Source: Escherichia phage Bp7. From it: a stretch of 64,000 bases of DNA. The DNA lies in sequence record NC_019500.1. One strand, 5' to 3'. This document shows, in pieces, positions 17,734 to 53,444 of the stretch; the first letter of the stretch is position 1; the number at the start of each line of letters is the position of its first letter. A program made the position numbers and the translations under genes. The notes below the pieces were generated by a model, which saw only the letters and a program-made list of their open reading frames with translations, was not told the DNA's origin and searched no databases.

Positions 17734-17745
17734 TATCGTGATGCC

Positions 17746-18030
17746 ATGAAACAGTCCGTCGAGGACTATGATAAAGAAGTTGTCGACGGATATACTAATA
17801 GAGTTTATAAAACTGAATGCGAAGAAGGAGACTACAGGAGATTGCTCTTGGCCGCGAAGACCCAGGCCTTAATAAATCTAGACCGCAAGCAGGTAAAGTT
17901 GGCAGGCGACTTCAGAGATAAGCAGCGCGCCATTCGTAGTGATTATCAAGAGCGTATCGCTCAACAAAGGAAAACTGTGACCCAATCAGCGTGGTTTAGT
18001 GGACAAGCAGGTGAAAAAAGTTTCTATTAG
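17746..18030 (+). CDS. hypothetical protein (94 aa) inside the vector-flanked segment
   Basis: ORF with noticeably higher GC than flanking phage DNA, no clear RBS; function unknown. Confidence 0.35.
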   Translation: MKQSVEDYDKEVVDGYTNRVYKTECEEGDYRRLLLAAKTQALINLDRKQVKLAGDFRDKQRAIRSDYQERIAQQRKTVTQSAWFSGQAGEKSFY

Positions 18031-32591: not shown

Positions 32592-33308
32592 TTATTGAGG
32601 CTTCATTTTACAGTTATCGAAATGCCAACGATTCATATTACCGGAATTCCCTTGTTTACCACAATGAGGGCATTCTACCTTCTTTTCTGATTTTTTGCGC
32701 CCGTTAGGATTTTTCTTACAAAAAACTTTATGAGCCGCAATAACACAGGATTTTCCTGAAAGGCCGCAGAATTCACATTCCACAATTTTATAGACCATGT
32801 TTTCTAGGCCTTTCTTTATTTTTAATTTTTGCTCCTCAGATATAGAGCGGTCCACTTTATTAGGGCCTTTAGGGCAGTTATCGAAATGCCATCTGTTCAT
32901 ATTGCCTACCAATCCAGTTTTACCGCAGTGTGGACAGGTAACTCTAGGCTTTTTTAAAGCGGAAATTGACATTTTCTTTCTGGTTTCTTCCGAGAATTCT
33001 TTATCCTTTTGGACTTCTGAATTCTTACGACGAAGCCATCCAAATAATTTATTTTTAGACCTATCAGCTTTTGGTGAGCTAACTGTCATCATTCTTGCTG
33101 CATAGACTAACGATGCATTATCTGGATGGATTTTAACTAACAACTGATGAGCCAAGTAATGTTCTTCAGGTGTTAAGTCTACCAAGTTTAAAGCGTCGTC
33201 CGTTCCACCCATGCATTGTGGTATAATGTGATGACGTTCTTTATAGGTAGTTAAATTTCTATTAACTGCTCGTTGAATAAGCTTTTCGTATATTGATTTA
33301 TAATTCAT
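32592..33308 (-). CDS. HNH homing endonuclease (Mob-like)
   Basis: Minus strand; HHIIPQCMGG...N...H HNH motif plus repeated CPHCGK...NMNRWHFDNC zinc-binding modules; ATG 33308 after AAGGA. Confidence 0.8.
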   Translation of the reverse strand: MNYKSIYEKLIQRAVNRNLTTYKERHHIIPQCMGGTDDALNLVDLTPEEHYLAHQLLVKIHPDNASLVYAARMMTVSSPKADRSKNKLFGWLRRKNSEVQKDKEFSEETRKKMSISALKKPRVTCPHCGKTGLVGNMNRWHFDNCPKGPNKVDRSISEEQKLKIKKGLENMVYKIVECEFCGLSGKSCVIAAHKVFCKKNPNGRKKSEKKVECPHCGKQGNSGNMNRWHFDNCKMKPQ

Positions 33309-33351
33309 TATCAAATCCTTATTTGATACAGCGACCGATAAAGATATTTAT

Positions 33352-33546
33352 ATGGCTTCCAATTTTATAACAGGCCAGCATTTGTTGGCCGTTCCTGAAC
33401 TAAAGCGGTATGTTTTAGTTAATAACTTCTCTGGAGACGAACATCTTGTTACTGAAGATTATCTCCGAAATGCTTTTAAGTCAGAGTATGATAGAATCAT
33501 GTCGAACAGGAATCCTGCCTGGTTCGTTTATGAATACTTTGATTAA
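33352..33546 (+). CDS. hypothetical protein (64 aa)
   Basis: ORF upstream of rpbA. Confidence 0.4.
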   Translation: MASNFITGQHLLAVPELKRYVLVNNFSGDEHLVTEDYLRNAFKSEYDRIMSNRNPAWFVYEYFD

Positions 33547-50156: not shown

Positions 50157-50348
50157 ATGAGTGCAATGTGTACGGGCTCTAAGATTTCTGTATTCGAATT
50201 ATTCGAAGAGTATGAAATCGTATCAAAGGACCAAGAAGCTATCCATATTATTGCCGGTGATGGTGTGACTTGGATTATCCCACTGTATCATGAAGATACC
50301 TATGAAGTCACTGATGCGAATGGTGATAAAGCTATTTTCGTAATATAA
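50157..50348 (+). CDS. hypothetical protein (63 aa)
   Basis: ORF with GAGG RBS. Confidence 0.45.
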   Translation: MSAMCTGSKISVFELFEEYEIVSKDQEAIHIIAGDGVTWIIPLYHEDTYEVTDANGDKAIFVI

Positions 50349-50351
50349 ATA
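50344..50351 (+). promoter_or_regulatory. late promoter TATAAATA
   Basis: Exact TATAAATA ~14 nt upstream of the ORF at 50365. Confidence 0.45.
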
Positions 50352-50564: not shown

Positions 50565-51593
50565 ATGTCATATGTCGATAAAGAATTTGCTGTACGTGCC
50601 TTGAATTACCAACCTAAATTCAGACAAGTAACTGGTAGTGATTTTAAATTAAACTGTCGTTGTCGTGTATGCGGTGACTCTCAAAAAGATGAGAACAAAG
50701 CTCGTTTTTGGGCCTATCCGGCTAATGACGGCTCTGTAATGCTGCACTGTTTTAACTGTGACTATTCAGCAGGAATTAAGAAGTATCTATACGAATACGA
50801 GCCTGATTTATATCGCGAATATATTCTTGAGAAACATAAAGAGCAATCGTTCGGGAGACAAGCTGCACCTAAGGTGGAGATATCTGAAAAAATTAAAGCT
50901 AAGATGCCTGTCATCGAAAAGCTTAATTTCTGTGAACGATTAGATAGGATGCCGAAGGACCATCCTATTATCAAATATGTGACGTTACGTTGCATTCCTG
51001 AAAACAAATGGAACCGGCTGTGGTTTACTAAAGAATGGCCTGCATTAGTTAACTCTGTGAATCCAGGGACCTATTCTAAAGAAATGCCTGAGCCTCGTTT
51101 GGTTATTCCAATTTTCAATAAGAATAAACAAATTGAAAGTTTTCAGGGTCGAGCCTTACGTAAAGATGCTCCACAAAAATATATTACAATAAAAGCTCAC
51201 GACCAAGCTACAAAAATATATGGAATGGATACAGTTGACGAACGTCAGTTGGTGTGGGTAATGGAAGGCCCTATTGACTCTTTGTTTGTTCCGAATGCAA
51301 TAGCAATTACTGGCGGGTCGTTGGACTTGGCTATGGTTCCGTGCAAAGAAACTAGGGTTTGGGCCCTTGATAGCGAAAGCCGCCACCCAGATACTATTTC
51401 AAGAATGAAAAAGCTTATCGAGGCTGGTGAAAAAGTAGTGTTTTGGGATAAGGTCCCTTGGCCTTCTAAAGATATTAACGATATGATTAGAAAAGACGGG
51501 GCGTCGCCGGAAGCAATACTAGAATATATGAAAAGTAATTACAGTCAAGGATTAATGGCTAAATTGAGATTACAACGGTATGCTAAAATATGA
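50565..51593 (+). CDS. 61: DNA primase gp61
   Basis: 342 aa; zinc ribbon CRCRVCGDSQKD...CFNCDY; strong similarity to T4 gp61. Confidence 0.95.
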   Translation: MSYVDKEFAVRALNYQPKFRQVTGSDFKLNCRCRVCGDSQKDENKARFWAYPANDGSVMLHCFNCDYSAGIKKYLYEYEPDLYREYILEKHKEQSFGRQAAPKVEISEKIKAKMPVIEKLNFCERLDRMPKDHPIIKYVTLRCIPENKWNRLWFTKEWPALVNSVNPGTYSKEMPEPRLVIPIFNKNKQIESFQGRALRKDAPQKYITIKAHDQATKIYGMDTVDERQLVWVMEGPIDSLFVPNAIAITGGSLDLAMVPCKETRVWALDSESRHPDTISRMKKLIEAGEKVVFWDKVPWPSKDINDMIRKDGASPEAILEYMKSNYSQGLMAKLRLQRYAKI

Positions 51594-52345
51594 ATTATAA
51601 TAAAATTTATGACGATTTGGTTAATAGGGCCCTTGAAAGGGGTCTTATTAAAGAAAATTTAAAATACTATACAGAATCTCATCATATTATACCTGAATGT
51701 ATAGGTGGGCCTGATATAGATTCAAACAAAGTATTATTTACGGCAAGAGAGCATTTTATAGCTCACATATTATTGTATAAGATTTATAAGTTGCCTAAAT
51801 TAATATATGCTGTGCATATGATGTGCAATTCTAGTGAAAAGCACCAAAGAAATTCTAAGATGTATGACTGGCTTAGAAAGGACCATAAAGCAGCCTTAAG
51901 TAAGAAAATGACCGATGCTTGGAAAGCCCCTGAATTTAGGACCAAAATGGTGGCGGCCTTATACCAAAGGCACAAAGATAAGCCCGTCACAGAGGAGACT
52001 AGGGAAAAACAGTCTAATTCTCTAAAGAGGTATTATAAAGAAAATCCTATCTCTGAAGAAGCAAAAAAGAAAAATTCAGAAGCCCAAAAACAAAGGTTTA
52101 AAGATAGGCCTCAAACAGAAGAAACAAAAAGATTAAGGAAGGACTCATGCAGAAAAACCCAAGGCACCCCTATATGGTTATGTAATTCGAATGGGGTAGG
52201 AATAGAAAAGTTTTCTTCTGCGGCAGAAGCTAAAGAAATCTTAGGATTGTCCGGGCACACCCAAAATATATACACCGCTTGTAAGCGAAACAAAGAAACC
52301 GGGAGATTGTATAAATCCTCCGGTTTAATTTGGAAATATCAATAA
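51590..52345 (+). CDS. HNH homing endonuclease (Mob-like)
   Basis: 251 aa; ESHHIIPECIGGPD...N...H HNH motif with NUMOD-like repeats; N-terminus paralogous to the HNH gene at 32592-33308. Confidence 0.8.
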   Translation: MNYNKIYDDLVNRALERGLIKENLKYYTESHHIIPECIGGPDIDSNKVLFTAREHFIAHILLYKIYKLPKLIYAVHMMCNSSEKHQRNSKMYDWLRKDHKAALSKKMTDAWKAPEFRTKMVAALYQRHKDKPVTEETREKQSNSLKRYYKENPISEEAKKKNSEAQKQRFKDRPQTEETKRLRKDSCRKTQGTPIWLCNSNGVGIEKFSSAAEAKEILGLSGHTQNIYTACKRNKETGRLYKSSGLIWKYQ

Positions 52346-52351
52346 TGGCAT

Positions 52352-52552
52352 TTAAACCTGCATACCTGTAAAGAATCCAATGATGCTCAACACGTGTTCC
52401 ATAGTAACCGCAGGGAGAGTAATACCCTGACTAGCCGCAACAGGTACAACTAAAAGATTCCATAGGAACACATCTAAAGCAAGGAAGCCCATCATGAGCT
52501 TTTTATCTTTCTTGCTGGTTAATTTCCAAATTTGGTAAAATATACTACCCAT
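52352..52552 (-). CDS. small membrane protein (66 aa) on the minus strand
   Basis: Two hydrophobic helices; preceded on the minus strand by TATAAATA and AGGAGG RBS. Confidence 0.5.
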   Translation of the reverse strand: MGSIFYQIWKLTSKKDKKLMMGFLALDVFLWNLLVVPVAASQGITLPAVTMEHVLSIIGFFTGMQV

Positions 52553-52573
52553 GTTATCCTCCTGTTAAATTAA

Positions 52574-52581
52574 TATTTATA
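52574..52581 (-). promoter_or_regulatory. late promoter TATAAATA (minus strand)
   Basis: Reverse complement of 52574-52581 is TATAAATA, ~20 nt upstream of the minus-strand ATG at 52552. Confidence 0.5.
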
Positions 52582-52651: not shown

Positions 52652-53167
52652 ATGGCTCATTTTAACGAATGTAGTGGTTTGATTGCAGGTGTTGATAAAG
52701 CTGAGGAAGCTTATGTTAGTGCAATTACCAAAGGTATCGACCCACTGCAGGTTATGCTTGATATGCAGAAATCTTTACAGGTTCGTCTGGCTAATGACCG
52801 TGATTATTGTTACCACCCGGATAAACTGGCTACTGCAGGTGATGTTGTTGGATGGATGCGCGAACAGAAAGACTGCATCGATGATGAATTCCGTGAACTT
52901 CTGACTTCACTTGGTGAAATGTCTAAAGGTGAGAAAGATGCTTCTGCCGTCTGGAAAAAATGGAAGGCACGTTACCCAGAAGCTCAGTCTAAACGTATTG
53001 ATGAAATGAGCCCTGAAGACCAGTTGGAAATTAAATTTGAACTTGTGGACATAATCCATTTCGTATTAAACATGGTTACAGGTCTTGGTATGACTTCTGA
53101 AGAATTGTTCAAACTTTATTATCTGAAAAATCTTGAAAATTTCAAACGTCAGGACAATGGGTATTAA
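52652..53167 (+). CDS. 56: dCTP pyrophosphatase gp56
   Basis: 171 aa; strong similarity to T4 gp56 (MAHFNEC..., EQKDCIDDEFRELLTSLG, MSPEDQLEIKFEL). Confidence 0.9.
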   Translation: MAHFNECSGLIAGVDKAEEAYVSAITKGIDPLQVMLDMQKSLQVRLANDRDYCYHPDKLATAGDVVGWMREQKDCIDDEFRELLTSLGEMSKGEKDASAVWKKWKARYPEAQSKRIDEMSPEDQLEIKFELVDIIHFVLNMVTGLGMTSEELFKLYYLKNLENFKRQDNGY

Positions 53168-53171
53168 TCAG

Positions 53172-53179
53172 TATAAATA
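53172..53179 (+). promoter_or_regulatory. late promoter TATAAATA
   Basis: Exact TATAAATA upstream of soc. Confidence 0.6.
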
Positions 53180-53210: not shown

Positions 53211-53444
53211 ATGGGTGGTTTCGTTAATATCAAAACCTTTACGCATCCGGCTGGTGAAGGTAAAGAAGTTAAAGGTGTTGAAGTATCTGTTCCGTTTGAA
53301 ATCTATTCAAACGAGCATCGTATTGCGAATGCACACTATCAGACATTTCCTTCTGAAAAGGCGGCATACACTACTGTAGTAACTGATGCAGCCGATTGGC
53401 GAACTAAGAACGCGGCGATGTTTACGCCTACCCCAGTAGTTTAA
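53211..53444 (+). CDS. soc: small outer capsid protein Soc
   Basis: 77 aa; VNIKTF...AHYQTFPSEKAAY matches T4 Soc. Confidence 0.85.
   Translation: MGGFVNIKTFTHPAGEGKEVKGVEVSVPFEIYSNEHRIANAHYQTFPSEKAAYTTVVTDAADWRTKNAAMFTPTPVV

Follow-up and report, generated by a model that had tools for sequence, protein, structure and literature searches.

Genes and Signals at the Locus

We analyzed a stretch of 64,000 nucleotides from Escherichia phage Bp7 (NC_019500.1), which is called the window below. The source belongs to Dhakavirus, and the region is 98.2% identical to Escherichia phage PSD2002. Coding in the window is strongly dominated by the plus strand, on which 102 non-overlapping ORFs occupy 85% of the 64 kb. 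Next to gene 56, an ORF of 66 codons is located on the minus strand and is convergent with an HNH-type homing endonuclease gene (Table 1). It is preceded by the Shine-Dalgarno sequence AGGAGG and, a further 10 nt upstream, by the octamer of T4-type late promoters. Its product is identical to hypothetical proteins in phages Bp7 and PSD2002. The initial annotation had described this ORF, its two signals, the convergent HNH gene, the late promoter of soc and the near-total coding on the plus strand, and our analysis recovered all of them.

Table 1. Positions of the genes and signals discussed in the text (window coordinates, except for the T4 homologue)
Feature	Position	Strand	Remarks
Second minus-strand gene, HNH endonuclease	32592-33308	-	238 aa; own TATAAATA at 33345-33352(-)
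Primase gene 61	50565-51593	+	Upstream of the HNH ORF
HNH-type homing endonuclease gene	51590-52345	+	Separates primase gene 61 from the small ORF; annotated in PSD2002 as homing endonuclease
Terminator-like hairpin, then CUUUGUUU	52288-52326	-	26 nt past the small-ORF stop; antisense to the C-terminal codons of the HNH gene
Small ORF	52352-52552	-	66 codons, 66 aa, ATG at 52552; product MGSIFYQIWKLTSKKDKKLMMGFLALDVFLWNLLVVPVAASQGITLPAVTMEHVLSIIGFFTGMQV; family T4 Dam.1 / RB69 ORF029w / PHROG 2024
Shine-Dalgarno sequence AGGAGG	52558-52563	-	5 nt before the small-ORF ATG
T4-type late promoter octamer TATAAATA	52574-52581	-	29 nt upstream of the small-ORF ATG
Gene 56, dCTPase	52652-53167	+	Next to the small ORF
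Octamer TATAAATA ahead of soc	53172-53179	+	Motif scan
soc	53211-53444	+	Pfam Soc, 71 bits
T4 homologue of the small ORF	17738-17938 (T4)	+	66 aa, MVQKLMALVNAIKGNKKRIAFTISTMVGILLWNFILSPVAIAHGVNIPVVTLDTFVDLAFALVGLI; in the otherwise empty dam-61 gap (309 bp)

However, the small ORF is not the sole reverse-strand late unit in the window, because a second minus-strand gene, which encodes another HNH endonuclease, has its own late octamer. The two HNH proteins are paralogues (38% identity over 146 aa, E 4e-24). The plus-strand HNH ORF matches the Pfam HNH family at an E-value of only 0.04. Its ATG overlaps the stop codon of gene 61 (51590 vs. 51593), and its own stop codon is 6 nt from that of the small ORF.

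Beyond the stop codon of the small ORF there is a terminator-like hairpin with 12 paired bases (AAACCGG.GGAUU/AAUCU.CCGGUUU). The folding z-score of the whole hairpin region is only −1.4, which is weak, and the hairpin was not on the list obtained from a simple terminator scan. Tentatively, it may end the late transcript, which would otherwise continue in antisense orientation across the HNH gene and gene 61. One more copy of TATAAATA was found at 50344-50351(+), 13 nt upstream of a 53-aa 61.1-like ORF (50365-526) that lies ahead of gene 61. This copy may be a chance occurrence, or it may be a late promoter that leads into 61.1 and 61.

Conservation and Distribution of the Small Gene

We searched phage records by tblastn and obtained matches in 133 of them with the Bp7 protein as the query and in 699 with the T4 version. 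The initial annotation had named a lack of both a phenotype and conservation in relatives as a result that would speak against it; the small gene was found in more than 800 Tevenvirinae records from at least 10 genera. The length of the ORF is 61–74 aa throughout these relatives, while identity falls to about 20%. Residues W31, N32, P37 and P47 are invariant in the family, and G43 and G63 are nearly so.

The pattern of substitution was examined by codon position. Between Bp7 and JS98 there are 39 nucleotide differences in 60 aligned codons, distributed 7/2/30 over the three codon positions, and only 6 amino acid changes. The bias toward the third position was also found in the Marfa, PM2 and CGG4-1 pairs, whereas counts for pairs with Q7622 are invalid because of a 1-codon indel. 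Nei-Gojobori dN/dS ratios between genera (0.2–0.9) are uninformative, since pS is saturated at 0.5–0.7, and codon-position counts among closer relatives were used instead. These comparisons show that the 66-codon ORF is a real gene, old and conserved.

Its position is conserved as well. Gene 56 (or dam) flanks the small gene on one side and the 3' end of primase gene 61 on the other, both being on the opposite strand. Convergence with gene 61 and abutment on its 3' end were found without exception in Dhaka-, Marfa-, Moon-, Mosuguk-, Kanagawa-, Gelderland-, Gapriver-, Mosig-, Karam- and Tequatrovirus. Its strand is opposite to that of all neighbors, and the ORF adjoins the 3' end of gene 61, in JS98, Marfa, Moon, PM2, PEi20, CGG4-1, PhAPEC2, Q7622, Kosakonia 305, CkP1, P896 and EAWsc9. 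In most relatives the two stop codons overlap by 4 nt, with no terminator between the genes. The HNH gene separates them in the Bp7 stretch and in PSD2002, which alone among 444 matching records shares this arrangement across at least 80% of the query. The HNH gene is a recent insertion, and the usual convergent partner of the small gene is gene 61. The insertion has altered the C-terminus of the small protein, which reads GMQV here and GVPV in JS98.

At the same locus in RB43, a Krischvirus-like phage, Acinetobacter phage 133 and Aeromonas phage avDM4, the small gene is absent and plus-strand genes are found instead. We therefore assign the gene to the enterobacterial clade of T-even phages.

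Two types of sequence can be distinguished in the family: type A, the Dhaka type (MGSIFYQIWKL...), and type B, the T4 type (MxKLxxLIxAIKGNKK...). Gaprivervirus VR26 contains an intact B copy and an intact A copy in tandem, only 8 nt apart (record positions 495-692 and 701-901). A late-class motif precedes the first copy only, and the pair looks bicistronic. In P896 (1359-1556, 1573-1668) and EAWsc9 (1495-1692, about 1700-1800), the B copy has been kept and the A copy is truncated or frameshifted. This pattern suggests that the two types are interchangeable.

Late Promoter Motif and Predicted Expression

We compared the upstream regions of 15 homologous loci drawn from at least 10 genera. A late-class octamer (TATAAATA, A/G/C-ATAAATA or ATTAAATA; in short, NATAAATA or ATTAAATA) was found 21–30 nt upstream of the ATG at all 15 loci. 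A Shine-Dalgarno sequence containing GGAG (AGGAGG, AGGAG or GGAGG) starts 8–12 nt upstream of the ATG, again at 15 of 15, and the sequence further upstream than the promoter motif has wholly diverged. The background of this motif class is 7 per 128 kb (both strands of the Bp7 stretch), which corresponds to 0.0016 expected per 30 nt. In the window, TATAAATA itself occurs 6 times, against 6.6 expected from shuffled sequences. A single TATAAATA proves nothing alone, but the conservation of the motif is far above chance.

Geiduschek and Kassavetis (PMC2988020) have reported that 32 of 50 T4 late sites are perfect and that 9 have A at −13; the remaining sites are single deviations, bar two exceptions, one of which is a TA-to-AT change. 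The −13 variants among our 15 loci agree with this variation. The same authors state that all early and middle transcripts of T4 have one polarity and that late transcripts can have either, both strands being transcribed at several sites and at different times (PMC2988020). Since early and middle transcription all proceeds in the other direction, only a late promoter can serve the strand of the small gene. We infer that the gene is transcribed late from a gp55-type promoter. The proposal of a late small membrane protein in the initial annotation is thus supported at the level of sequence by the promoter-class motif, the ribosome-binding site and the conservation of the ORF in at least 10 genera.

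In Moon (1941-1965), Kosakonia 305 (1457-1480) and CkP1 (1441-1465), only about 22–23 nt separate the small gene from the divergent early gene. As a result of this short gap, the late octamer overlaps the start codon of the early neighbor (CAT on this strand).

A Predicted Membrane Hairpin

The N-terminus of the small protein (residues 1–19) is basic (KLTSKKDKK). It is followed by a strongly hydrophobic transmembrane helix at about residues 20–41, the loop QGITLP, which contains a conserved G-x-x-LP turn, and a second hydrophobic helix at about residues 48–66, which is shorter and ends the protein. The maximum of the hydropathy profile (KD15) is about 2.0–2.7. An AF2 model, whose mean pLDDT of 68 indicates moderate confidence, contains helices at residues 3–11, 14–41 and 51–62. 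Hydropathy and the last two of these helices support the two-helix membrane architecture that had been assigned to the protein at the outset, and by the positive-inside rule the topology would be an N-in/C-in hairpin. The C-termini have no charged hydrophilic tail (...GFFTGMQV in Bp7; ...GLI, ...GVPV and ...LGF in relatives).

A dual-start motif was considered and rejected because the internal Met20/Met21 are not conserved. When the AF2 model was compared with BFVD by Foldseek, only members of the family were found at E < 0.1, and this fold search was uninformative. Two entries named "Holin of 3TMs" appeared in that search at E about 5, which is no evidence of a relationship.

Remote Homology to a Holin Core

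A PHROGs search gave one family, PHROG 2024, labelled as function unknown, whose profile matches residues 1–64 of the small protein at positions 1–64 of 65 (E 5.1e-28). An exhaustive profile search of 1.84 billion proteins returned 23 representatives at E ≤ 1e-3, none with a known function; they are 45–99 aa long, except for one protein of 3,816 aa without the matched stretch. In Pfam, the Bp7 protein had no match at E ≤ 1, and 30 Tevenvirinae members reached no Pfam holin model by themselves, with no match to PF11351 at E ≤ 10. The gathering threshold of PF11351 (24.8 bits) is not reached by the Bp7 protein, and distant non-T4 relatives score only 13.6–15.3 bits. However, distant metagenomic members of 52–99 aa have sub-threshold matches to PF11351 (E 0.03–0.1), always in the C-terminal half, and they match phrog_3427, labelled "holin", at E 5e-4 to 2e-3.

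By tblastn, we also found a match to gp44 of Roseobacter phage CRP-125. This protein of 134 aa scores 57.9 bits on PF11351 and reaches E 3.7e-28 on phrog_3427, and its gene is located directly upstream of the small terminase gene. In T7, the holin gene 17.5 likewise lies just upstream of the small terminase gene. With gp44 as the seed, 84 distinct PF11351-type holins were gathered from viral contigs and compared with the Dam.1 family by hhalign. The family with its distant members aligned to the 84 holins with a probability of 95.7% (E 9e-9, score 46.5), and the alignment of Tevenvirinae sequences only with a probability of 94.2% (E 1e-7, score 41.9). A separate run against an alignment of 7 holins gave 74.7% (E 2.6e-5, score 31.8). 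Reversing either side reduced the probability to 0.1% (E 0.49–0.6, score 8–9), and 60 column shuffles gave scores of 10.4 ± 1.9 with a maximum of 16.8.

The alignment comprises 44–50 columns and places residues 16–65 on holin positions 65–121 of 134, that is, on TMD2-loop-TMD3. W31-x-F/L, P37, G43, LP47 and the acidic residue that opens helix 2 are matched. The small protein starts about 15 residues before TMD2 of the holins and ends at the last residue of TMD3. The holin link comes from profile-profile comparison and from intermediate sequences, and we class the protein as a truncated remote homologue of the PF11351 TMD2-loop-TMD3 core, though not as a member of PF11351. The intermediates of 82–99 aa are encoded on non-T4 viral contigs of roughly 19–40 kb, 2–3 genes from a GH24 lysozyme gene; a gene for a transmembrane/coiled-coil protein, weakly similar to Rz-type spanins, is also found within 2–3 genes. 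In the Tevenvirinae, the small gene is unlinked to e, t, rI or the spanin genes.

Comparison with Known Lysis Proteins

The closest likeness is with GTA_holin_3TM (PF11351/PHROG 3427), which includes ICP1 TeaA, the holin of the Rhodobacter capsulatus GTA and CRP-125 gp44. In addition to the profile homology over about 50 residues, the two groups share the pattern W/Y-x-F...P....G-x-x-LP-x-x-P/T-(L/M)-(D/E)....LG, the same implied hairpin topology with basic residues ahead of the first helix, and a phage-encoded, late or lysis-related context. However, the small protein is half as long (66 vs. about 130 aa). It does not have the first 60 or so residues of these holins, with their N-terminal helix and polar region, the GWRP motif, the third TMD, or the basic C-terminal tail (RTFEKMKG in the holins collected). 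Furthermore, its gene is not beside an endolysin gene, and a T-even phage already has the unrelated, essential holin T.

The lysis genes of T4 are scattered and unlinked. T consists of one TMD and a large periplasmic domain, and RI of a SAR signal and a periplasmic domain, whereas the small protein is essentially without a soluble domain. It shares with T, RI and RIII its occurrence in the same phages, the membrane compartment and, by our reading of the promoter, late timing; no sequence relationship to these three proteins was detected. Class II holins and pinholins such as S68 of phage 21 have about 66–70 aa and two hydrophobic helices in an N-in/C-in arrangement, and the small protein seems to resemble them in size, in its two helices and in its predicted topology. 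However, it matches no Pfam holin family and has neither a dual-start motif nor a charged C-terminal tail, and the endolysin of T-even phages is cytoplasmic and requires large holes.

TeaA of phage ICP1 is a PF11351 member whose expression collapses the proton motive force and which can be triggered by dinitrophenol (PMC7182436). In the same system, LidI, a small PLE protein with predicted transmembrane domains, collapses the lysis inhibition of ICP1 (PMC7182436). LidI may serve as a functional model for the small protein, as a tiny transmembrane protein that tunes timing where the holin is a PF11351 member. It is, however, encoded by a satellite and not by the phage, and it is offered as a functional model with no claim of homology.

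Possible Role of the Small Protein

We propose that the small ORF represents, in Dhakavirus, a late gene conserved in the Tevenvirinae, which would be read from a gp55-type late promoter opposite to the early and middle genes. The strong ribosome-binding site would then direct translation of a 66-aa inner-membrane protein, with the basic N-terminus in the cytoplasm and the two hydrophobic helices forming the N-in/C-in hairpin. Such a protein would accumulate in the membrane late in infection and act as a lysis accessory, modulating membrane permeabilization or its timing. We give an even chance to the reading that the product is a holin-like inner-membrane protein, truncated and made late, that plays an accessory role in lysis or membrane permeabilization. 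T-even lysis depends on holin T, and T4 t mutants do not lyse; because of this, the small protein cannot be a sufficient holin and is unlikely to be an autonomous one.

A more specific form of this proposal is that Dam.1 is a minimal holin-derived hairpin and a fourth, hitherto unrecognized membrane component of the lysis clock in T4 and its close relatives. By assembling together with the T holin, or by gating it or the membrane state that serves as its trigger, the hairpin would affect lysis timing or lysis inhibition. We regard this form as speculative and unlikely as it stands. If it is correct, the decades for which Dam.1 went unnoticed would be explained by its missing annotation in the T4 reference and its place on the "wrong" strand of an early region. 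Lysis and lysis inhibition in T4 are textbook systems thought to be genetically complete, with t, e, rI, rIII and the spanins. An accessory role for the small protein would mean an additional lysis or membrane factor in T4, and a holin core domesticated as a 66-aa mini-protein.

Alternatively, a two-helix hairpin may have been turned to purposes other than lysis. As a genuine inner-membrane protein made late, the product could take part in late superinfection exclusion or membrane sealing, serve as an anchor in head assembly or packaging, or modulate a host membrane protein, and its holin likeness would then reflect no more than the shared ancestry of a generic transmembrane hairpin. The protein indeed has neither the N-terminal portion of PF11351 holins nor their charged C-terminal tail, the gene is unlinked to lysis genes and confined to one enterobacterial clade, being absent at the locus from the four phages listed above, and holin-family proteins have been co-opted for other roles (PMC7182436). 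However, we found nothing positive for any specific alternative, the conserved residues fall on the same hairpin that is conserved in holins, and the intermediate relatives are lysozyme-linked. We hold a job outside lysis to be possible but somewhat improbable. The initial annotation had suggested either a lysis-timing or a virion-associated factor, and its two halves fared differently. The former gained from the remote homology to PF11351/phrog_3427 and from the lysozyme-linked intermediates. For a small virion protein one could cite late expression, which is common to structural genes, and the nearby soc gene; yet T4-type virions have no membrane, the product is a hydrophobic transmembrane hairpin with a basic N-terminus, and it has no similarity to structural PHROG or Pfam families. 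Our results do not support a virion role, which we consider very improbable.

The ORF might also be incidental to its transcript, if a late antisense RNA, reaching into gene 61 from its 3' end (in Bp7, into the HNH gene), damped early mRNAs. The 4-nt overlap of the stop codons with no terminator between, which is found in most relatives, would suit such a function, and both T4 strands are known to be transcribed at several sites and times (PMC2988020). It is nevertheless hard to reconcile with the third-position bias, or with a ribosome-binding site, an ORF length and invariant residues that are kept down to 20% identity. The HNH insertion moved gene 61 about 750 bp off and the ORF was not lost; moreover, VR26 retains two tandem coding copies. 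Thus, antisense regulation is scarcely credible as the main function. A chance ORF with a chance promoter match would agree with the number of TATAAATA copies in the window, which equals the chance expectation, but it is already refuted by the comparative data (more than 800 records, the codon-position bias and the promoter motif at 15 of 15 loci), and we consider its probability negligible.

Annotation in T4 and Other Phages

The T4 homologue has GATAAATAttaatttaaAGGAGG ahead of it, and its promoter octamer is GATAAATA. The ORF is unannotated in RefSeq NC_000866, in AF158101 and in the 1984 record X01416, and AF158101 and X01416 have no late promoter annotated at the dam-61 gap. At the same locus, the name dam.1 is used in the T4T record and ORF029w in RB69. 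Our literature searches found no paper on the small gene and no transcript or protein data for it. The gene is catalogued but unstudied. Its homology to a holin core is new, and together with the missing annotation in the T4 reference it deserves attention. Even if there were no lysis phenotype, the gene would be a good reason to correct the T4 reference annotation and to give PHROG 2024 a name.

A few records label a member of the family "holin" or "holin family protein" (OE5505 in UniRef, EAWsc9). In several GenBank records, the protein of 66–74 aa is misnamed "DNA packaging ATPase" or "dCTP pyrophosphatase" (Klebsiella phages; CGG4-1, 1501-1725).
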